This document shows positions 36,517-47,445 of a DNA stretch of 64,000 nt, one piece after another (positions within the stretch are counted from its first letter, which is position 1; each line of letters begins with the position of its first letter). The stretch is from Trypanosoma brucei. Its lineage: Eukaryota. The position numbers and the translations under genes were made by a program. Where the stretch lies: NCBI GenBank assembly GCA_000002445.1, contig CM000208.1, positions 1,376,001 through 1,440,000 on the forward strand. Reading direction: 5' to 3'. Under the pieces are notes generated by a model. The model was not told where the DNA came from and made no database searches. It saw nothing but the letters and a program-made list of their open reading frames with translations.

Positions 36517-38652
36517 ATGGCTACAACCTTGCCTTTACAGCAACAGCGACTCTTTGACAAACTCGCGCGCGATTTCGATGCACGGGAATATGCAAAGGGC
36601 CTGCGCACAGCCGACAGCATTCTGTCCGTCGTCCCCAACCACGCGGACACCCTCGCACTGAAGGGGTTGACGTTGCACCACATGGGTCGTAAGGAAGAGG
36701 GACGTGAAATCATCGAAAGCGCCCTCGGTTTCAACGATACTTCCACAGTTGTGTGGCATTCGCTCGGGATGTGCCACCGCGCAGATGATAATCACGTGGA
36801 GGCGCTGCATGCGTTCCAGAAGGCACACGAATACGGCCCATCGAACGTAAACGTTCTACGAGATATTTCATCAATCTGTGTACAATTGAGGGAGTGGGAG
36901 CAATTCGTGGACGTTCGCAGAAAGATGGTGACCTTAAGACCAGGCGTCCGCGCCAACTGGATTGCACTATCCTGTGGCCATCGCATGCTTGGAAACAAGG
37001 AATTGGCGGCTGCTGTGATAGACGTTATGACTACTATAATGGAAGCAGGAGATAACAGGGCGGAGAAGAGCGAAGTGCGCCTCTATCAGGTGGAACTAGA
37101 GTTGGCTTGTAATGCGCCTGCCCGAGCATTGGATCTACTGAAGAAACACAGCCAGGAGATCATCGATGAATACGAAAAGGCGTCTCTTCGCGCCAAAACT
37201 CACGCACTTCTCGGGCAAAAGGTGGAAGCTGAGAAATGGTACATGGAGCTCATCACCAGAGGAATGGCGGAGGCGGATTGCGTTGCCGCGATTGCCCAAT
37301 TGCGCAAGATTCCTCTTGACGCAGCCCGACGTCCAAAGCGTGATGTGGATAAATACCTAGAACTTCTTAAACAAGTTCAGGAAGTAAACCCCAAGAGTAA
37401 CTACGCCAAACGGCAGGTCCTGGAATGTGTGCCTATCGAGCAGTTCAGGGACCAACTTCGTGAATACGCGGGGATGTTCATAGTGAAAACCATTCCCTCG
37501 CTTTTCAGTGTTCTCAAATCACTTTATCAGTGTCCTGATCGCACACAGCATATTGGTGAGGTGTTCCATCAATGGGAAGAGGAACTCATGGCGGGAGATT
37601 TCTCAAGCTTCGGTGGAAAGAAAGATCCTACTTTTATTTTGTGGGTTTGGATGTATTTGGCTTCCCACTATTGCCGTATACGTGAGTTTGGACGGGCTTT
37701 GGAGTATATTGGCCGCGCCATCGACCACACACCAACGTTTGACCTTTTGTACCTCATGAAGGCGAAAATACAAGCGAAGAACAACCAGTTGGACGAAGCT
37801 GCGAAAACGGCCGATATGGCACGCCGGTTGGACCTACAAGACAAGTACCTCAACGGAAAGGCTGCCAAGTACTTCTTCCGCGCCAATAAGATTAGGGAGG
37901 GGGAAGCACTAATGCAAATGTTCTACAAGACCACTGAGGTACCTGACGATACATACCTTACTGCGCTGGAATCCCAGTGCGCATGGTATGAAAGAGAGGT
38001 AGGGGATGCGTATTATCGAATGGGTGACTACATCTCTGCACTATCAAATTACCTGATGTGCGAGAGCCACCACCAACGTAATCACAATGAATTGTCCGAG
38101 TTTCACAACTATGTATTTCGTAGGTGCACGATGAGGGCCTGGTTTAACGTGATCGCCTGTGACGACAACCTCGAAGAAAACAAATTCTTTCAGAAACTGT
38201 GCCCCCGTATCGTTAGGACATATATGAAGATTCATGAGGAAGGTGAGGAGGCTGTGCGAGCCAAATATGCTCCTAGACCAGAAGTGGGTAAGTATAGCGA
38301 TGTGGAGGAAGGAAAGCGTATCGCAAACCTGAGACGTACATTCTACTTGCACAACGTAGACATCTCCGATCCTCTCAAGAAAGCAGGGCGATATCTTCAG
38401 GCGTCCCTTCTGCACAATGCGCTGTCATCGGAGGTGCACCTCCTAGCAGTTGAGTTCTACACAATGTGCCGAATGCCCTTTCTCGTGGCACGTGAGTTGT
38501 TGATTTTGGCTAAGTTGAAATGTCCGTCGACGAATGAGCTTGTTACTCAGTTCGAAAACAACCTGTTTCGTGAAATGGCATCCAGCATGGATCCACGGGT
38601 GGAGTCCATAATCAAGGAAACGCTTACTACCGCTTTGGAAAAACTGAATTAA
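36517..38652 (+). CDS. NAA15: N-alpha-acetyltransferase A auxiliary subunit (NAA15/Nat1-like, TPR repeats).
   Basis: N-terminal LFDKLARDFDAREYAKGLRTADSILSVVPNHADTLALKGLTLHHMGRKEEGREI..VWHSLGMCHRADDNHVEALHAFQKA parallels human NAA15 ([53 protein letters not shown]). 712 aa. The track start is GTG. ATG at 36517. Confidence 0.8.
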   Translation: MATTLPLQQQRLFDKLARDFDAREYAKGLRTADSILSVVPNHADTLALKGLTLHHMGRKEEGREIIESALGFNDTSTVVWHSLGMCHRADDNHVEALHAFQKAHEYGPSNVNVLRDISSICVQLREWEQFVDVRRKMVTLRPGVRANWIALSCGHRMLGNKELAAAVIDVMTTIMEAGDNRAEKSEVRLYQVELELACNAPARALDLLKKHSQEIIDEYEKASLRAKTHALLGQKVEAEKWYMELITRGMAEADCVAAIAQLRKIPLDAARRPKRDVDKYLELLKQVQEVNPKSNYAKRQVLECVPIEQFRDQLREYAGMFIVKTIPSLFSVLKSLYQCPDRTQHIGEVFHQWEEELMAGDFSSFGGKKDPTFILWVWMYLASHYCRIREFGRALEYIGRAIDHTPTFDLLYLMKAKIQAKNNQLDEAAKTADMARRLDLQDKYLNGKAAKYFFRANKIREGEALMQMFYKTTEVPDDTYLTALESQCAWYEREVGDAYYRMGDYISALSNYLMCESHHQRNHNELSEFHNYVFRRCTMRAWFNVIACDDNLEENKFFQKLCPRIVRTYMKIHEEGEEAVRAKYAPRPEVGKYSDVEEGKRIANLRRTFYLHNVDISDPLKKAGRYLQASLLHNALSSEVHLLAVEFYTMCRMPFLVARELLILAKLKCPSTNELVTQFENNLFREMASSMDPRVESIIKETLTTALEKLN

Positions 38653-39845: not shown

Positions 39846-41030
39846 ATGAAGGTGAATTGTTTTCTACCTTTGTTGCTGTCAGTCAGTTATTGCACTTTAG
39901 CCGACGATAGCGCGCTCACACTGAAGGCGGGGGAAAGTATCTGCAAACTGTCGAAAAGGTTGAAGTCAGTGTTCAAGTATGTAGACCGAAGAACGGATAT
40001 TGCCTTGGAAAAGATCTCCGATCTTGAGGATATGTTGGAAGTGGTGAAGTTTAAGATTGTGAAGGGAAGGTCGAATAATACGAATAGAGAGTGCAAGGAT
40101 GTCTCCGATTTTATTATGAGTAAAGCAACTTGGTTGATAAGAAAAGGGAGGAAGGAGGTTGATAGATTGAAATACGTGGGGCTTGCGGCAATTGGAAATG
40201 CGGGACTGGCGGCAGGGAGGTTAGATGAGATGGTCAATGTGTGGAGGAGGGTGTACAGTGCCGGTACTGGAAACTTTTGCATTGGGGATGAAGGGAATGA
40301 AACAAAGAGGACTGCACTTCCAGATTGCTATCTGACAGATTCGGAGAGGGATGACTTTACTGGGATTGATGAAGGGGACAGGTTAGAAGATATAAACAAT
40401 GTTACCGCTGATGCCTTTAATGAATTATTGGAGTTGCATACAGAGGATGATTTGTGGAGTAGCCCATTGACGAGTGGCATGGACGGTAAGGACTGCCGTC
40501 TAACAAATGCCAGGTCTGGCGGAGGTTACCTCGTCGGAGAGAGCCCATCTGGTAATTTGTTTTGGGGAGACGGGGTGCTTGGGGTGAAGAGGGGTAGCCG
40601 AGGGTATGACGGAAGGACGTCGAATGTAAGGAGCAAATTACTCATAAATGATGTAGTGTGGGAAGCAGACACTGTAGAGCATACCCCTATTATAAGGAAT
40701 GTACACGAAGACTTGCAAAATTTTTTTATCGACGCAGAAAAAATTGATGAATTGGTGGGGGAGACTGGGGATAAGTGGAATTGGGAGTTCTCTCATGAAA
40801 TTGGAAGTCACAGTGGTCATCCCTCAGAGTTTGATGATGAGGAGACTGACGATGTAGCGGACAACACATCGGCAGTGGAAGAGGCAGTAGGGAAGGCATT
40901 TGTGGGGTTGGGAAATAGGGAAGCGTTTCAGGAAGAGATGGTGTTGGAAGAGATGGCGTTGTGTGGAGAATGTAATATTTACACTTATTACCAGTTGTTT
41001 TTCTTAGTTTTCGTTCCTGTTTTTGTTTGA
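39846..41030 (+). CDS. Predicted surface protein. Signal peptide, helical N-terminal domain, Cys pattern, and a C-terminal hydrophobic tail (GPI-signal or TM-like). Paralog A of a tandem pair.
   Basis: MKVNCFLPLLLSVSYCTLA signal peptide. C-terminal YYQLFFLVFVPVFV. Motifs shared with the downstream paralog: CKLSKRLKSVF, AAGRLDEMVNV, GGGY, WGDGVLGV, NDVVWEA. Confidence 0.6.
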   Translation: MKVNCFLPLLLSVSYCTLADDSALTLKAGESICKLSKRLKSVFKYVDRRTDIALEKISDLEDMLEVVKFKIVKGRSNNTNRECKDVSDFIMSKATWLIRKGRKEVDRLKYVGLAAIGNAGLAAGRLDEMVNVWRRVYSAGTGNFCIGDEGNETKRTALPDCYLTDSERDDFTGIDEGDRLEDINNVTADAFNELLELHTEDDLWSSPLTSGMDGKDCRLTNARSGGGYLVGESPSGNLFWGDGVLGVKRGSRGYDGRTSNVRSKLLINDVVWEADTVEHTPIIRNVHEDLQNFFIDAEKIDELVGETGDKWNWEFSHEIGSHSGHPSEFDDEETDDVADNTSAVEEAVGKAFVGLGNREAFQEEMVLEEMALCGECNIYTYYQLFFLVFVPVFV

Positions 41031-41140
41031 ATCAGTTTCACTTGTTTTGCATCACCGTAGACCAGGTGTCTTTAACATGTGTATATCTTCGGTGGTGGTG
41101 TGTTAGCCTTCCGTGCTGATTTTTTTTTTTGATAGTAGAG

Positions 41141-42304
41141 ATGCTCAAGTTTGTTCTTGTGTTAATACTGATTATTGTTGGTGGTGACTATTGTTATCGT
41201 GGTAACGCTGGGGTGGCTTTGAAGTTGCAAGCCGTGAAGTCCGTGTGCAGAGCATCGAAAAAGCTTAAATCGGTTTTTACATTTGTGAAGGACAAACTGG
41301 AAAAAGCGGATAGAAACTTTTACGAGGTGAAACTGCTGCAAAAGCTACTCCGCTTGAAGCTTCTAACGGAATGGACTAAAGGAGAAAAGTGCGGGACAAT
41401 GAGGGTTTTTCTTACCAACATAAGGGCGAAGGAGAGAAATATGCGACGGGAACTGTCAGCCTTATGGAAAATGGGGAGGAGAGTTGTGGGTGAGGCAGGG
41501 ATTGCAGCTGGGAGACTGGACGAAATGGTGAATGTGTTCGCACAGTCGTACGGCAACGAAAGTGAAACGAAAACGTGTATTGGGGGTACAAATGGCAGTC
41601 CTATGGAGGTTTTGAAAAGGTGCTACGCTAACAATTCCAAAACAGGGGAATGGGAGTTCCTCACAATTACAGAGGGGGGAGAACTGTTTGACAACGAGTT
41701 TGAGACAAACTTGGAGACCACGCTTCACGTTATGTTGTCGCTTGGGAATAGAGCCGATCCGTGGTATGACTATGGAAAGGATATGGGGTGTCAACTCACT
41801 AAAGGAGCCCCTGGGGGTGGGTACATGAAGAGCCATAACCTCACAGAGAACATCATTTGGGGTGATGGCATACTCGGGGTGAGCAAAAATGGAAATGGAA
41901 CTACCGGCTCCAAAGGAAACACGAGAGATGGGAAATATGCTCACGATGTCGTGTGGGAAGCAGAACCCACGAAAAATAATCCCACTCTCCGCAGGGTGAT
42001 CAAAGATTTTAGTGCATTCGAAGAATTATTTGCGAAGGTGGAGTCTTCCCACAAGCTGTTAATAGATGCATTTCTCCAGGAGAAATTGTTTGCTGAGGAA
42101 TTCGAGGCTCTTGCGGTTAGAACTAAGAAGAAAAGAGTGATCATTGGCGGTTCCACCTCCACCAAAAATAAGCAGAACAATGCCTTGGGGGGTAGTGGTG
42201 CCGGCGATGATAACGAAGTGAGTATGGAAGAGTGGTTGTCGCAAGTGGATGGGGGAATTGTAGAAGAGAGGTTGTTGGCGGAGGAAATGAAGGAGTGTAC
42301 GTAA
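41141..42304 (+). CDS. Paralog B of the tandem pair. Signal peptide, helical domain and the same motif set, but no C-terminal hydrophobic anchor. It may be secreted or a decaying copy.
   Basis: MLKFVLVLILIIVGG signal peptide. CRASKKLKSVF, AAGRLDEMVNV, GGGY, WGDGILGV, HDVVWEA. Ends in EEMKECT. The track start at 41129 is TTG. ATG at 41141. Confidence 0.6.
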   Translation: MLKFVLVLILIIVGGDYCYRGNAGVALKLQAVKSVCRASKKLKSVFTFVKDKLEKADRNFYEVKLLQKLLRLKLLTEWTKGEKCGTMRVFLTNIRAKERNMRRELSALWKMGRRVVGEAGIAAGRLDEMVNVFAQSYGNESETKTCIGGTNGSPMEVLKRCYANNSKTGEWEFLTITEGGELFDNEFETNLETTLHVMLSLGNRADPWYDYGKDMGCQLTKGAPGGGYMKSHNLTENIIWGDGILGVSKNGNGTTGSKGNTRDGKYAHDVVWEAEPTKNNPTLRRVIKDFSAFEELFAKVESSHKLLIDAFLQEKLFAEEFEALAVRTKKKRVIIGGSTSTKNKQNNALGGSGAGDDNEVSMEEWLSQVDGGIVEERLLAEEMKECT

Positions 42305-43869
42305 ACTACCTTGCACAAATTGGATAAAACTGCTTACCTAATATACAAATACATGTTAATATTGGATATAGTAATGTTTCCCCACTGGATTGATATTTGG
42401 GGTTCCCTTTTTTAAATTAGTTTCTTTGTGTTAAAGTGCCTGTAACTTTGTGGAGATGTCCGCCAACGAAACTACGCTGTTGCTGTTGGTTGTTGTGAGC
42501 GTACATTCTCGTCGAAACGCTTTGAGAAAACGAATCACAAAAGAATATATGTCAGGGAGTTGGCTGCCGCCCACCAACCCTGCGACAAGGACGAATGTAT
42601 AATCCTCAGTTTTTGAAATACTGAAAACATTTGTTGCCATGACACTTCCTCATTCGACTGTTGGTCCGTAGATACATGGTAAAGTATATGATTTACTCCG
42701 TAATCCACTAAAAAATTTGGGAGGGTAATATATAAAAAGTTGTCCCTTTTTAAGATCAAAAAGTTGTTTGAGAGGTGGCGGAAGTCCGCAGTCGCCGAGG
42801 TTGGGGAAATTACACCACAGTGGGGCCCAGGGTACCAGTGGCAACTGGATAAGAGGCCTGTACAATCCAATTAAACAAGTATCGTGCATTTTCTTGTTTT
42901 GAAAATAATATTGTAACGTGGCAACCACATTAGTGAAGTAAAGTTAGTATGTTTATGCGTGCACCTCTTGTGAGAGCGGTAGAGGCGAGGTCGACGCAAC
43001 AATAGGGATCAAGTCACTGGACGCCCCCCTCAAAAAAAAAAAAAGTAAGTGATCTCTCACTTCTCAACCATTAGTGGCGCTGGAAACTTCAAACGGTTTC
43101 AAAGGCCTGACTAACCAGTAATGTTGAGGAATTCCAAGAAAAAAGGCAACGTCCTACACACGAGAATCGTCGTTGCGTGCCACATACGGCGTTTCACAAG
43201 CGCACACGTACCGAGCTATCGCATATTTTTCACACCAGTTGCATTGGACACAGTTTCATGTGAAGGGGCGACTCTCACCAAACAAAACAAAGCTGGAGAG
43301 AAACAACTCACTGCCAAATAAGTCACCACAGTCATGCCCCGGTTTACCACCCCTTTTCAGTCGCCCCTCGCCTGTCTGTGCTTTTGGATGCTCCCGCAGC
43401 ACAACAAGGTTTAACCGTACAAAACGATGTTGAATCGAGCTGTATTTCGCGATACGTCGGCAACATCCGCCAACTGGTTGAGTCTCAGTTACCTTCCGTT
43501 AACGTGCTACATGCGTTCTCCTTGTGACGGGGAAAGCAAAGGTTGACTTAGTGATACGACCAAGACGTCTGTTAGCGCCCATACCAACAACGACTAACCA
43601 GAAGAGCATTCACGTCCCACGTTGGCAAGTCGTTTAACTTCGTCCGATTACAAAGACAAGAAAAAAGTCTTTCATCCGCCTCGGCGTGGAAAGCGAGGAG
43701 GTCATCAGCATTTCAAGATTCCTAATCCTAACCTTATTAATAAACACGTTGCTCCCCAAACCACTAATTTCAAATTTACATTAGGGACGAAACTCTCGTT
43801 GGCAAACAAATCGCAATGTCTTAGCATAAAAGCAATCGCCAGACTATCGAAACGCGTACTGTTGTGTGT

Positions 43870-44675
43870 CACATTTTTATTTTCTAAAACAAAATTTTAT
43901 TGGTATTTGTGTGATAGAAGATCAACTAATGGACAAGCAGGAAATGTTGATTCTGTTATTTTCTTTACTGTTTCTTCGCAACCCAGCGGAAGCTTACATT
44001 TCGCGCTGGTATCTACGCCCGGATCGCGACCCGGATTGCACAGATTTGAAAGGCGTATCTGACGTTCTGACCATGATGCGTGATGCTGAAGTTGCCAAAT
44101 ACGCGACCAAAAATTGCACACAACTAAAGGGGGAGGACTCGCGTACAGGGAAGCAGACGGGCAACTGCACTATTTGCGTTGGTCATTACATCTGCCATTC
44201 TCTGTATAAATGTGTGAGTAAAGACTTTGTCAGGTTTTTTGGAAATGGTAGCCAGGAAGAACCCGCAAGCGAAGAAAAAAAGGACAACGAGTCGGCTCTA
44301 GATGCTGCAGACACTTCCTCCTCAGGAACTGGAACTGAGTCTCCTGAAGAAACTACTGGCGGTAGAACCAATGTTAGATCTAATGTGGAAGATGTGAATG
44401 ACGGTAAGGAGAATGTGACCTCTCCTGAAGAAGAAAGCAGGGGCGCTCCACACGGTACCGCGGTTCCCCCTCTCGAGGAAAGAAGCCCGAACCCTACTGA
44501 CAGAAACAACCTAACACGTAATCACGTCTTAACTCTATTTGCTGGAAAATTTTCAAGCAATTCTCAACTTGTGTTGAATTTAAACAATAAGATTATGCTT
44601 TCAACGTTATTTTTCTTGCTATAAAAAAGACGAGAGATAAACTAGTTTGCTAACTGAAAACAATCCAAAACCCCT
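43870..44675 (+). repeat. Tandem duplication unit 1 (about 0.8 kb). It covers the 5' flank, the small-surface-protein CDS and about 50 nt of 3' flank.
   Basis: Near-identical to 45145..45940 except for a central block of about 190 nt and a short block near the 3' end of the CDS. Confidence 0.8.
43929..44624 (+). CDS. Small Cys-containing, Ser/Thr/Glu-rich surface protein with a signal peptide and a C-terminal GPI-anchor-type hydrophobic tail (copy 1).
   Basis: MDKQEMLILLFSLLFLRNPAEA signal peptide. Four conserved Cys (NCT..NCTICVGHYICHSLYKC). N-glycosylation sequons. Acidic S/T-rich spacer. C-terminal NSQLVLNLNNKIMLSTLFFLL. ATG at 43929, set inside the track ORF that starts at 43866. Confidence 0.65.
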   Translation: MDKQEMLILLFSLLFLRNPAEAYISRWYLRPDRDPDCTDLKGVSDVLTMMRDAEVAKYATKNCTQLKGEDSRTGKQTGNCTICVGHYICHSLYKCVSKDFVRFFGNGSQEEPASEEKKDNESALDAADTSSSGTGTESPEETTGGRTNVRSNVEDVNDGKENVTSPEEESRGAPHGTAVPPLEERSPNPTDRNNLTRNHVLTLFAGKFSSNSQLVLNLNNKIMLSTLFFLL

Positions 44676-45144: not shown

Positions 45145-45940
45145 ATATTTTTATTTTCCAAAACAAAATTTTATTGGTATTAGTGTGATAGAAGATCAAC
45201 TAATGGACAAGCAGGAAATGTTGATTCTGTTATTTTCTTTACTGTTTCTTCGCAACCCAGCGGAAGCTTTCGAATCGCGTTCGTATGTAAAGCCAGATGG
45301 AGACCCGGACTGCACAAATTTGACAGGTGTTTCTCATGTTCCCTATCACAATGATATGGATGATTACGCGGAAGAAAATTGCACAAAAATAAAGACACCG
45401 TCTCATAATAAAGAGCAGACGGGCAACTGCACTCTTTGCGTTGGTCATTACATCTGTCATTCTCTGTATAAATGTGTGAGTAAAGACTTTGTCAGGTTTT
45501 TTGGAAATGGTAGCCAGGAAGAACCCGCAAGCGAAGAAAAAAAGGACAACGAGTCGGCTCTAGATGCTGCTGACACTTCCTCCTCAGGAACTGGAACTGA
45601 GTCTCCTGAAGAAACCACTGGCGGCAGAACCAATGTTAGATCTAATGTGGAAGATGTGAAGGACGGTAAGGAGAATGTGACCTCTCCTGAAGAAGAAAGC
45701 AGGGGCGCTCCACACGGTACCGCGGTTTCCCCTCTCGAGGAAAGAAGCCCGAACCCTACTGACAGAAAGAACCTACCACATGATCGCTTCCTCGCTTTAT
45801 TTACTGAACACTTTTTAAGCAATTCTCAACTTGTGTTGAATTTAAACAATAAGATTATGCTTTCAGCGTTATTTTTCTTGCTATAAAAAAACGAGAGATA
45901 AACTAGTTTGCTAACTGAAAACAATCAGAAATAGAGAGTG
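45145..45940 (+). repeat. Tandem duplication unit 2.
   Basis: See unit 1. The ATG-to-ATG offset is 1274 nt. Confidence 0.8.
45203..45886 (+). CDS. Small GPI-anchor-type surface protein, copy 2. The signal peptide, Cys core, acidic spacer and tail are identical to copy 1. The N-terminal mature segment of about 60 aa and the region before the omega site are diverged.
   Basis: Alignment of the two translations by eye. ATG at 45203 within track ORF 45113..45886. Confidence 0.65.
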   Translation: MDKQEMLILLFSLLFLRNPAEAFESRSYVKPDGDPDCTNLTGVSHVPYHNDMDDYAEENCTKIKTPSHNKEQTGNCTLCVGHYICHSLYKCVSKDFVRFFGNGSQEEPASEEKKDNESALDAADTSSSGTGTESPEETTGGRTNVRSNVEDVKDGKENVTSPEEESRGAPHGTAVSPLEERSPNPTDRKNLPHDRFLALFTEHFLSNSQLVLNLNNKIMLSALFFLL

Positions 45941-47445
45941 ATATCGTTCATACGTGTTTAATTGTATTTTTTTACCAATATTGCTGTATGTTTCTTTGAA
46001 CATTTAGTGGCTTGTAGTATTGTACGGTAGTGGAAAAGGTAGACACCTAATGGGGTTTGTACTTCTGTTGATGGTGGTGTAGTGTTGTTAAAGGATAGCG
46101 CTATTGACAGGGGATTGCGTGTAACGAGGGAATGGAAAATGTGTTTGGGACTAATGGAAGGGAAACGTAGATAACATAATGTAGTGAGGTCGCGTAATTA
46201 ATGCTCATTACGGTAGCATGGCTTCGTGGCGGGGTCTGATGGATACGCAACGGCATGCGTGGGGTGAACAGGGGCTATGTTACCCAGGCAAATACGGAGA
46301 GAAATTGTATGCCACTGCATCGTTGCGCGGTGTAGGAAGGATATTGACCACATGGGATGTTATGTTGTACGAATCTGGTTTCTCTTTTGTCCTAATCTCC
46401 TAGTTGGGGGTGGAAAGGGAATCTGCTAGAGGAAACGGGGAGAGGCATTATGTCTGCGGCGGTTTCGTTGGTCGAGGGAAATGGGTATGGATATTAGATC
46501 CGACTTGAGAGCCGCTCTTCACTACACCAGATTGCGGAGCTCTATCCGAAGGAAAAGTGCACCGGCACGGTGGGCAATTGGGTAGAGTGCTCAGAGTTGT
46601 GAGTATATGCTAGGGTGTATTTGCATATTTCCTGCTGAACCAAAGCGGGAGACAGGAATAAGCGGGGATAATGGGATGGTTTCTCGTGGTTTGTACTGCT
46701 ATGCGCGGATGTTTTGTCAGGTGTGGACGACGGGTTAACTGAGGGGCGGCGTTTCCCGAAAAGAAAAGTGCGGAGCGGATGCGACGCAGATATATTTTTA
46801 AGGCGCGTAATTGGCAGTGCGGTAAGCATACTGAGGGATATCGGAAAATAGGACAGTGAATATGCGGAGGGGAGTGAGCAATGGCAACTCCTGAAAAATG
46901 AAAGACCAAGAGGCGACGCCGGTACGACACACGAGGAAAGCACAGAAGCATTTTCGCGTTGTTGGCCATCCAGCAAGCTTTTCCTCCCATCCATACAATG
47001 CTTCCGCTGCCCCTTTCACGTACATTGGTCCCCGCAGGTGTAGTTCCTGTGGATAATTCTCTTAGGGTTAAGTTCGATTTCTCCGCGTGAAGTGGTGTAC
47101 CCCCAAAATTCCCCATTATTGTTCGTCCCACCTTTACAGTTTGCGGTTTCCTTGCAGGCCTCTTTTTCTACACATCCGTAATCAAATTTGTTTGCCGCTT
47201 CCGTGTCAATGGATGTTCATTGGGTGCCACCGCAGAAGTGGTAGGGGACTCTGGGGCGAACGCTGTTTTTGACAAGTTCCAGAGTTTTCTGATTTTGTTA
47301 CTCTTTGTTTTAGTGATTTGTCGATCCATGACCTTCTGAGGCAGCTCTACGTTAGCCCCCGTTTCATATAGTTGTTGTTGTTTTTCCAAACGCTTTGCGG
47401 GCGTTTACGCACTCCTCGACGTCCACTCCCCGTATTGTACGGCCT
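45941..47445. other. Convergent strand-switch region, a candidate Pol II transcription termination zone, between the plus-strand and minus-strand polycistronic units.
   Basis: All credible CDSs upstream are on the plus strand and all downstream are on the minus strand. Intergenic strand composition flips from T/C-rich on the plus strand to A/G-rich on the plus strand across this point. No tRNA-like structure found. Confidence 0.7.

Follow-up and report, generated by a model that had tools for sequence, protein, structure and literature searches.

A tandem pair of chromosome-internal genes in Trypanosoma brucei encodes members of the ESAG6/7-PAG family and probably the subunits of a single-anchor receptor

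Introduction

VSG-fold surface receptors, among them the transferrin receptor and SRA, play a central part in how trypanosomes take up nutrients and evade immunity, and they are candidate drug-entry or vaccine targets. In the only solved member of the ESAG6/7-PAG family, the transferrin receptor (PDB 6SOY), the anchor-less subunit ESAG7 is the obligate partner of ESAG6. Tandem pairs in which one gene carries a GPI signal and the other does not are typical of the family, according to Jackson 2013 (PMC3605285) and Tiengwe 2021 (PMC8259959). Among the PAGs, PAG1 is followed by PAG5 in the procyclin locus (PMC4288722), and it is from the procyclin loci that Haenni et al. deleted PAGs in their "all-PAG" knockout.

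Here, we analyze two adjacent genes, A and B, that lie on the + strand of T. brucei TREU927 chromosome 10 within a stretch of 64,000 nucleotides (the window). The literature already covers these genes, along with the family they belong to, their stage regulation, and a predicted heterodimer. A four-gene cluster was reported to be up-regulated 122-, 14-, 95-, and 18-fold in bloodstream relative to procyclic forms (Veitch 2010), with 14-fold for gene B mRNA, where the identifiers used (Tb10.70.1300/1310) are tied to A and B by annotation names, gene order, and strand-switch context rather than by sequence. A 2026 preprint treats A and B as a predicted, coexpressed heterodimer. Since the two genes lie outside the procyclin loci, they were spared by the published "all-PAG" knockout.

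Results

The products of both genes match database entries of T. brucei TREU927 exactly: EAN77984.1/XP_822812.1, annotated "PAG1, putative," for A and EAN77985.1/XP_822813.1, annotated "PAG2, putative," for B. Published primers for Tb927.10.5700 and Tb927.10.5710 match the two open reading frames (ORFs) directly 3' of B, which identifies A and B as Tb927.10.5680 and Tb927.10.5690 (Table 1). Gene A starts with an ATG at 39846 and stops with a TGA at 41028-41030. For gene B, the ORF list, made with the bacterial code, gives a TTG start at 41129; we used the first ATG, at 41141, which yields a protein of 387 residues ending at a TAA (42302-42304). A sequence-only reading of this DNA had described two tandem genes for proteins of roughly 390 residues at 39846-42304; both ORFs lie exactly there, with 394 and 387 residues. 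The genes are separated by only 110 nt, which implies a very short 3'UTR for A and 5'UTR for B. Immediately 5' of the B ATG, this spacer has a run of 11 T (41120-41130) as well as AG dinucleotides, and the two mRNAs presumably undergo coupled processing.

Upstream of the pair, the last conserved housekeeping gene encodes the NatA auxiliary subunit (Nat1), which we used as synteny anchor. Its orthologs in T. congolense, T. vivax, T. cruzi, and T. melophagium share 65-69% identity with it. Downstream are Tb927.10.5700, whose product has a signal-like N terminus and a hydrophobic C terminus but no match in a Pfam search and which belongs to the same co-regulated cluster as A and B, and its tandem paralog Tb927.10.5710 (80% identity, BLASTP E = 4e-126). 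These two are direct DNA repeats with a spacing of ~1.26 kb, the sole repeat found around the island. Among ORFs of at least 150 residues, those up to 45886 lie on the + strand, those from 47446 on lie on the - strand, and no tRNA genes were detected around the island or the strand-switch region. A six-frame search of the 64-kb window for EP and GPEET procyclin repeat ORFs returned none. A and B are hence not procyclin-associated in the strict sense, having no procyclin unit and a NatA auxiliary subunit gene as 5' neighbor. The view that A and B belong to a surface-protein island which varies between lineages and closes a polycistron is supported. Transcripts of Tb927.10.5700 and Tb927.10.5710 have been described in salivary-gland parasites only, at low level (Savage 2012), which conflicts with the bloodstream up-regulation reported by Veitch 2010.

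Table 1. Features of the A/B locus, with positions counted from the first nucleotide of the window
Feature	Position	Strand	Basis
NatA auxiliary subunit (Nat1) gene	36517..38652	+	Pfam PF12569, E = 1.5e-81
Gene A (Tb927.10.5680), 394 aa, PAG1-like, predicted C-terminal anchor signal	39846..41030	+	Exact protein match
A signal-peptide-like N terminus, aa 1-20, MKVNCFLPLLLSVSYCTLAD	39846..39905	+	Kyte-Doolittle maximum aa 3-19
A C-terminal hydrophobic tail, aa 375-394, ECNIYTYYQLFFLVFVPVFV	40968..41027	+	Kyte-Doolittle
A-B intergenic region, 110 nt	41031..41140	+	Read off the sequence
Gene B (Tb927.10.5690), 387 aa, PAG5-like anchor-less subunit	41141..42304	+	Exact protein match
B C-terminal helix up to the conserved Cys (…VEERLLAEEMKECT)	42251..42301	+	Alignments, DSSP helix 371-386
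B 3' flank, no anchor-coding remnant	42305..42470	+	Three-frame translation, local DNA alignment
Tb927.10.5700, 231 aa	43929..44624	+	Primers at 44177-44199 and 44298-44318
Tb927.10.5710	45203..45886	+	Primers at 45439-45461 and 45560-45580, 0 mismatches
Convergent strand-switch region, polycistron end	45887..47445	.	ORF orientation

The two proteins had been taken for tandem paralogs with an overall identity of about 30%. A BLASTP comparison aligned 303 residues with 94 identities (31%, E = 2e-34), a similarity far above chance, and identity across our comparisons was 27-31%. The set of motifs that the sequence-only reading had listed keeps its order in a MAFFT alignment: CKLSKRLKSVF in A and CRASKKLKSVF in B, an identical AAGRLDEMVNV, a Cys motif (FCIG in A and TCIG in B), and then GGGY, WGDG[VI]LGV, and [NH]DVVWEA in both. 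One motif was imprecise, since G[KM]DC fits A (GKDC) but not B, which has GKDMGC. Kyte-Doolittle profiles are in line with the signal peptides proposed for both proteins, each of which has a hydrophobic signal-like N terminus, and in A the leader preceding helix 1 is modeled as nonhelical with low pLDDT.

Family membership was determined using profile and structure searches. The VSG A-type domain PF00913 was found in both proteins, with 42.2 bits (E = 8e-11) for A and 50.5 bits (E = 2.5e-13) for B, as against a curated cut-off of 22.1 bits. In phmmer searches A matched ESAG6 (6SOY_A, E = 7e-14) and B matched ESAG7 (6SOY_B, E = 5.8e-20), and ESAG6 and ESAG7 were the only significant PDB sequence matches of either protein (E from 1e-13 to 6e-20). 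A profile search found PAG1, PAG5, PAG2, PAG4, PAG-like and ESAG6-like genes of T. congolense, and ESAG6. The outcome depended on the method: a word-indexed protein search returned A alone with a single query and ESAG6/7 alone with the family alignment, and the PAGs and T. congolense genes were found only by exhaustive HMM search. A and B are therefore members of the transferrin-receptor-like ESAG6/7-PAG family (Fam14/15).

AlphaFold models (pLDDT 72.5 and pTM 0.68 for A, 76.5 and 0.74 for B) point to the same family. As expected from the helical N-terminal halves noted earlier, DSSP assigns two ~50-residue helices to each model (residues 26-76 and 80-135 in A, 29-79 and 85-135 in B), and helix 2 is followed by a head of ~140 residues, about 136-275, before helix 3 begins. 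In Foldseek searches, the best match of A was 6SOY_A (E = 4.9e-12, TM 0.73) and that of B was 6SOY_B (E = 4.5e-13, TM 0.75), with target-normalized TM of 0.71-0.76 to the 6SOY chains overall, followed by class-A VSGs (E about 1e-4, probability 1.0). The long K/E/L-rich helices that prevail in the N-terminal half had instead suggested a three-helix bundle like that of HpHbR, GARP, FHR, or ISG65/75. That assignment is hardly tenable, since GARP and HpHbR are marginal matches (E = 0.15-0.4 for A and 0.006-0.19 for B, query-normalized TM at most 0.32), Pfam assigns the VSG A-type domain, and a VSG-type head separates helix 2 from helix 3. The predicted fold is that of class-A VSGs and of the ESAG6/7 transferrin receptor, not that of the HpHbR/GARP class.

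We then compared the C termini. A 15-residue Kyte-Doolittle maximum is present at the C terminus of A only (TYYQLFFLVFVPVFV), while B ends in ...EEMKECT with no hydrophobic tail. As the sequence-only reading had noted, B stops just before the point where the tail of A begins: its end, …VEERLLAEEMKECT, corresponds to …EEMVLEEMALCG in A. At the sequence level, this makes a tandem pair with a tail in A only. In alignments, the tail of A falls opposite that of PAG1 (…MCGVGRIGSLRRTLALLFLLF), which is likewise hydrophobic, and it has GPI-signal-like geometry, with a small residue around C373/G374, a spacer of ~7 residues, and a short hydrophobic end of 11-14 residues. It probably serves as a signal for GPI addition, for which the residues around C373/G374 are the candidate site. 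A BigPI-derived list (Savage 2012, supplementary file 4) includes PAG4 and Tb11.01.6220 as its only PAG-named genes, and gene A is absent from it.

The end of B could also be read as decay, with B an incipient pseudogene whose anchor was removed by a premature stop, or the stop could be a sequencing artifact. Such a reading would account for an end that falls just at the start of the A tail, but the findings below make it very improbable. The earlier proposal to look for an out-of-frame anchor remnant after the stop gave none: in the 3' flank of B, no hydrophobic stretch appeared in any of three translated frames, and in a local alignment with the tail-coding DNA of A, 374 of 500 shuffles reached the observed score. 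In T. b. gambiense and T. equiperdum, neither the A nor the B ORF is disrupted, and identity is at least 99%; for B, the same ORF of 387 residues is found in T. b. gambiense and in T. b. equiperdum, and 384-385 of its 387 residues are unchanged. The domain of B is confidently predicted, and, as mentioned above, its mRNA is 14-fold up in bloodstream forms. Finally, the C terminus of PAG5 (…EDRLLGEELKDCGV) falls in the same alignment column as that of B. Since B and PAG5 both stop at the conserved Cys from which the A and PAG1 tails extend, the anchor-less state is old and maintained rather than a recent decay. Hence, of the proposal that B is either a secreted variant or a copy that lost its anchor, the missing anchor holds, while recent loss or simple secretion does not fit a PAG5 that ends alike beside an anchored PAG1, nor the T. 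congolense pairs described below.

The closest relatives of A and B are PAG1 and PAG5 of the EP/PAG1 procyclin locus on chromosome 10 (EAN78417 and EAN78416), whose consecutive accessions fit the published gene order. In a neighbor-joining tree, A and PAG1 are sisters (42% identity, 100% bootstrap), and so are B and the 370-residue protein at the PAG5 position (55% identity, 100% bootstrap). These relationships indicate that an anchored/anchor-less pair was duplicated as one unit. The split between A and B is older than the duplication from which the two pairs, A/B and PAG1/PAG5, arose, so neither gene is a simple local duplicate of the other. The old duplication in a surface-protein island that had been inferred from sequence is thus right as to age and setting and wrong as to a local origin of the pair.

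A similar adjacency recurs in T. congolense, where on contig CAEQ01000762 an anchor-less gene of 432 residues adjoins a hydrophobic-tailed gene of 403 residues from the same family. In T. vivax, the position syntenic to A/B holds a single gene for a 433-residue secreted/tailed protein. Pfam and PDB sequence searches with this protein found no match, hmmsearch with the family gave 3.1 bits, and hhalign aligned a 51-column N-terminal stretch only (E = 0.0046, probability 7.6%). This gene may be a very distant ortholog of A/B, and if so, the origin of the receptor lineage predates the T. vivax split.

Do A and B act together? They might instead be independent, with A a GPI-anchored VSG-like homodimer and B a separate soluble factor, secreted as a decoy or scavenger. 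B does carry a signal peptide while lacking an anchor, and VSGs of the same fold homodimerize. However, the anchored/anchor-less adjacency survived a duplication so old that the copies now share 42-55% identity, and T. congolense shows such an adjacency as well. The obligate partnership of ESAG7 with ESAG6 in 6SOY and the heterodimer predicted in the 2026 preprint also argue for a pair, which leaves independent action unlikely.

As regards the ligand, we compared A and B with ESAG6/7 over two ESAG6/7 stretches that older mutagenesis had mapped as ligand-binding (205-215 and 223-238). Identical residues numbered 10/33 between A and ESAG6 and 11/33 between B and ESAG7, and what is shared is just a Cys/Gly/Trp framework, so that transferrin binding by A/B is not to be assumed. 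These alignments suggest, although not decisively, that the ligand of A/B differs from transferrin. The opposite view, that A/B is a second, chromosome-internal transferrin receptor backing up ESAG6/7, is in keeping with the shared family, fold, and pair architecture, with the conservation of transferrin-binding-domain positions in PAGs (Jackson 2013, PMC3605285), and with the up-regulation of two PAG genes in iron-starved bloodstream forms described in PMC8259959. We consider it improbable. Overall identity to ESAG6/7 is just 19-26%, the mapped stretches retain framework residues only, and, according to PMC8259959, TfR silencing leads to compensatory import of free iron and iron deprivation inhibits growth, which suggests that there is no efficient back-up transferrin receptor. 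In a 2026 complement screen, binding was reported only for ISG65, the factor H receptor, Tb927.10.3620, and Tb927.11.1470, and none for A/B.

Discussion

Taken together, these findings are best explained if A and B together make up a transferrin-receptor-like receptor of the ESAG6/7-PAG family, encoded at a chromosome-internal site and belonging to the bloodstream stage, with one subunit from each gene and a single anchor, a reading to which we give a probability of roughly 65%. GPI attachment of A, heterodimerization, surface location, and receptor function are what we infer from family, fold, and gene architecture. More tentatively, and with the balance against it, the pair could be a second VSG-derived, single-anchor, heterodimeric bloodstream receptor, with a host ligand that is neither transferrin nor one of the complement components screened.

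In the single-anchor receptor that we favor, both proteins would enter the ER via their N-terminal signal peptides, and each would fold as an elongated VSG class-A-type N-terminal domain, built of two antiparallel helices of ~50 residues each, a head that consists of loops and short strands and lies distal to the membrane, and a long third helix running back toward the membrane. A and B would pair side by side, like ESAG6 and ESAG7. The last ~20 residues of A would be swapped for a GPI anchor near C373/G374, and the anchor-less B, ending at the equivalent conserved Cys, would be held on the cell through A alone. The two divergent heads might jointly form a single asymmetric site that binds a host macromolecule, and the heterodimer might be handled like the transferrin receptor, in the flagellar pocket and by endocytosis.

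Since the genes, family, stage regulation, and predicted heterodimer have been published, our findings add no new kind of biology. They do place A/B among the few invariant, chromosome-internal, bloodstream-up-regulated members of the VSG-fold receptor class, and finding the ligand would lengthen the short list of VSG-fold receptors.

How does the A/B pair compare with known systems? With the N-terminal domains of class-A VSGs (VSG2 7AQY, mVSG531 8B3B, and 1VSG), A and B have in common a helical hairpin and a head lobe. They differ in being single-copy genes that encode no VSG C-terminal domain and are not variant antigens. VSGs form homo-oligomers in which each chain is anchored, whereas the predicted anchor signal here is on A only. 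The T. congolense PAG-like genes (Fam14, Jackson 2013) belong to the same subfamily (profile search E from 1e-26 to 1e-50), but they show 22-31% identity to A/B and lie on unassigned or subtelomeric contigs, the available T. congolense data showed no copy in synteny with chromosome 10, and the CAEQ01000762 pair has the tail-less gene first and a spacer of 880 nt, as opposed to tailed then tail-less with 110 nt in A/B. PAG1/PAG5 is arranged as A/B is, with the tailed gene first and a tail-less second whose product ends at the same conserved Cys. Unlike PAG1/PAG5, A/B do not lie 3' of procyclin genes, and the up-regulation reported for them is in bloodstream forms, whereas PAG1/PAG5 are associated with procyclic forms.

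ESAG6/ESAG7 (PDB 6SOY/6SOZ) share with A/B the PF00913 family, the fold, and the arrangement as tandem genes for one subunit with a GPI signal, predicted in the case of A, and one without, but ESAG6/7 lie in a telomeric VSG expression site and A/B inside the chromosome, where a housekeeping polycistron ends. ESAG7 lacks the GPI signal and also the ~24-residue stretch that precedes it in ESAG6, whereas B ends where mature A would. The helices of ESAG6 and ESAG7 are ~98% identical and those of A and B ~32%, which makes A/B a much older pair. By Foldseek, A is structurally closest to ESAG6 and B to ESAG7.

A tandem pair of tailed and anchor-less paralogs

Genes A (Tb927.10.5680, PAG1-like) and B (Tb927.10.5690, PAG5-like) are arranged head to tail on the same strand. 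The sequence-only reading, which described them as tandem paralogs of about 30% identity, one anchored and one anchor-less, was confirmed. BLASTP aligned A with B at 31% identity over 303 residues (E=2e-34), and MAFFT placed the motifs C.xSKxLKSVF, AAGRLDEMVNV, CIG, GGGY, WGDG[VI]LGV and DVVWEA in the same order in both. Each protein starts with a hydrophobic, signal-peptide-like leader, while only A has a hydrophobic C-terminal stretch (…CGECNIYTYYQLFFLVFVPVFV), B terminating at …EEMKECT. When we looked for a remnant of an anchor 3' of the B stop, no hydrophobic segment was encoded in any downstream frame, and DNA alignment of this flank with the tail-coding segment of A scored no better than shuffled sequence.

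A and B exactly match EAN77984.1 and EAN77985.1 (T. brucei brucei TREU927, chromosome 10), annotated as "procyclin-associated gene 1 (PAG1) polypeptide, putative" and "PAG2 polypeptide, putative", and T. b. gambiense and T. equiperdum have orthologs of at least 99% identity. Since the two genes lie so close together, either the two mRNAs overlap or very little room is left for the A 3'UTR and B 5'UTR; PAG1/PAG5 have been reported as bicistronic, with unusual processing (Haenni 2009). Upstream of the B ATG is a T run, with three AG dinucleotides at most 10 nt from the ATG. The coding strand of A and B is G-rich and C-poor, coinciding with by far the highest GC skew in the window (at most 0.14 elsewhere).

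Coordinates of the features discussed (L001, L003 and L004 are loci of other trypanosomes; all other positions are those of the window)
Feature	Position	Strand	Remarks
Gene A	39846-41030	+	394 aa ORF
Cys373 of A	40962-40964
GC skew maximum	40001-42000		0.36
A/B intergenic gap	41031-41140		110 nt, A stop to B ATG
T run	41120-41130		11 T
Gene B	41141 (first ATG)-42304	+	387 aa; ORF listing begins at TTG 41129
Cys386 of B	42296-42298
Tb927.10.5700	43929-44624	+	~230 aa; primer match 44177-44318
Tb927.10.5710	45203-45886	+	~230 aa; primer match 45439-45580
Convergent strand switch	about 45.9-47.4 kb
T. vivax gene	L001:13252-14553		433 aa; GCA_021307395.1 SOPI01000403.1; syntenic to A/B
T. melophagium GP63 array	L003:13099-22142		JAJSEB010000048.1; at least 4 genes
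T. congolense PAG-like pair	L004:761-4150		CAEQ01000762.1; 880-nt spacer

A and B have a VSG-like fold

Both proteins score above the curated threshold for Pfam PF00913 (VSG A-type), and among PDB sequences only ESAG6 and ESAG7, which together make up the T. brucei transferrin receptor (6SOY/6SOZ), match significantly, with E values of 7e-14 and 4e-13 (A) and of 6e-16 and 6e-20 (B). AlphaFold2 models built from a family alignment of 17-20 sequences were of moderate confidence (A, pLDDT 72.5 and pTM 0.68; B, pLDDT 76.5 and pTM 0.74). In both, two helices of ~50 residues lead into a loop-and-strand head (about 136-275) and a third long helix, after which a disordered acidic linker connects to a short C-terminal helix. 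In Foldseek searches of the PDB, 6SOY chains came top (E 5e-12 to 5e-13, target-normalised TM 0.71-0.76), ahead of class-A VSG N-terminal domains (about 1e-4), while GARP and HpHbR were marginal (E 0.15-0.4 for A, 0.006-0.19 for B). Because of this ranking, the three-helix-bundle architecture proposed earlier is better termed a VSG-like fold, which the field regards as a class separate from three-helix-bundle receptors (2026 preprint). Membership of A and B in the latter class is thus ruled out by fold comparison.

The locus is a species-variable surface-protein island

Despite the PAG naming, nothing is procyclin-associated here, and the window contains no EP/GPEET repeat ORFs. Downstream of a conserved NatA auxiliary subunit gene (Nat1), A, B, Tb927.10.5700 and Tb927.10.5710 are the final four genes of a + strand polycistron, beyond which lies a convergent strand switch. 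Gene identities follow from published primers for Tb927.10.5700/5710 (Savage 2012, PMC3378594, supplementary file 3), which match the two ORFs directly downstream of B. These are themselves tandem paralogs (80% identical) without a Pfam family. Their N-terminus resembles a signal peptide; the N-terminal part is rich in Cys, the middle is acidic and rich in Ser/Thr/Glu, and the C-terminus is hydrophobic.

In T. vivax, the position directly behind Nat1 is taken by one gene, whose product carries a signal peptide and a hydrophobic tail; convergent genes come next. Two motifs of this protein resemble those of the family, an N-terminal 'AAVKICSLSGALRDV' and, further along, 'CHLT'; the family profile matches it marginally (hhalign E=0.0046 over 51 columns; hmmsearch 3.1 bits), and the protein has no match in Pfam or the PDB. 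T. vivax is said to be without TfR-like genes. T. melophagium has an array of GP63 (Peptidase_M8) genes at the same position. Surface-protein families at this polycistron end therefore differ between trypanosomes, which supports the suggestion of a surface-protein island.

The anchor-less state is old and maintained

An exhaustive profile search with the A/B family returned 41 cluster representatives, which by source name comprise PAG1, a 370-aa gene at the PAG5 position, PAG2, PAG4 and a chromosome 11 PAG4-like gene in T. brucei, T. congolense "transferrin receptor-like, PAG-like" and "ESAG6-like" genes, ESAG6 and then VSGs. The bootstrapped NJ tree joined A to PAG1 (42% identical) and B to PAG5 (55%), both with 100% support; A and B are 27% identical in that alignment. 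Together with the published procyclin locus order EP1/EP2/PAG1/PAG5/PAG2*/PAG4 (PMC4288722), this pairing shows that a "tailed then tail-less" unit was duplicated whole. The A/B split predates that duplication.

Both anchor-less proteins end at a conserved Cys (B, …EEMKECT; PAG5, …EELKDCGV), the column at which A (…EEMALCG|ECNIY…) and PAG1 (…EEMAMCG|VGRIG…) run on into hydrophobic tails. The anchor-less state is thus old, shared and maintained, and not the outcome of a recent anchor loss. Ongoing pseudogenisation of B is contradicted by the same end point in PAG5, and by the conservation and expression of B. The Cys, at a predicted helix end (…EEM..C), is conserved not only in A, B, PAG1 and PAG5 but also in PAG2, PAG4 and most PAG-like proteins of T. 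congolense; one possible role is an inter-subunit disulfide.

Reported upregulation of the cluster in bloodstream forms

In T. b. gambiense, Tb10.70.1310 (PAG1 putative), Tb10.70.1300 (PAG2 putative) and the hypothetical genes Tb10.70.1290 and Tb10.70.1280 are 122-, 14-, 95- and 18-fold up in bloodstream versus procyclic forms (Veitch 2010), with the same bloodstream pattern in T. b. brucei RNA-seq according to the same authors. Matching names, order and context suggest that this cluster is the present locus. For Tb927.10.5700/5710, the 18-95-fold bloodstream upregulation conflicts with their weak detection, in salivary-gland parasites only (Savage 2012, PMC3378594). The same theme is seen on chromosome 11, where Tb11.01.6210/6220 (protein P0070) carry the annotations PAG2-like and PAG4 putative and the second of them encodes a hydrophobic tail; their bloodstream upregulation is reported as 73-90-fold (Veitch 2010).

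A and B as a putative ESAG6/7-style receptor

The best-supported reading is that A and B form an ESAG6/7-style receptor. Both chains would be secreted into the ER, take the VSG-like fold and pair side by side; A would receive a GPI anchor near C373/G374, as its tail suggests, B would be retained solely via A, and the two divergent heads would create one composite binding site. A does not appear in the accessible part of the BigPI-derived list of Savage 2012 (PMC3378594). That A is instead an anchored homodimer and B a secreted protein of independent function is possible but disfavoured, since an A/B-type pair has been retained long-term.

In the two stretches that mutagenesis has mapped in ESAG6/7 (205-215 and 223-238; PMC6958415), A and B share only a Cys/Gly/Trp framework, so transferrin is not a safe ligand guess, and a back-up transferrin receptor seems improbable. 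A complement screen found binding only for ISG65, factor H receptor, Tb927.10.3620 (judged a likely false positive) and Tb927.11.1470 (2026 preprint).

The genes, their family, the GPI+/GPI- pair logic, the stage-regulated cluster and the predicted heterodimer are already published or annotated, and the finding is real yet ordinary for the T. brucei genome. The pair lies outside the procyclin loci whose PAGs were removed in the published "all-PAG" knockout. GPI+/GPI- tandem pairs are a family trait reminiscent of ESAG6/7 (Jackson 2013, PMC3605285; Tiengwe 2021, PMC8259959). ESAG7 is without the C-terminal Cys region of A and B. In T. congolense, a tail-less 432-aa gene precedes an adjoining tailed 403-aa gene, an order opposite to that of A/B and PAG1/PAG5 but the same as in ESAG7-then-ESAG6 and PAG2-then-PAG4.
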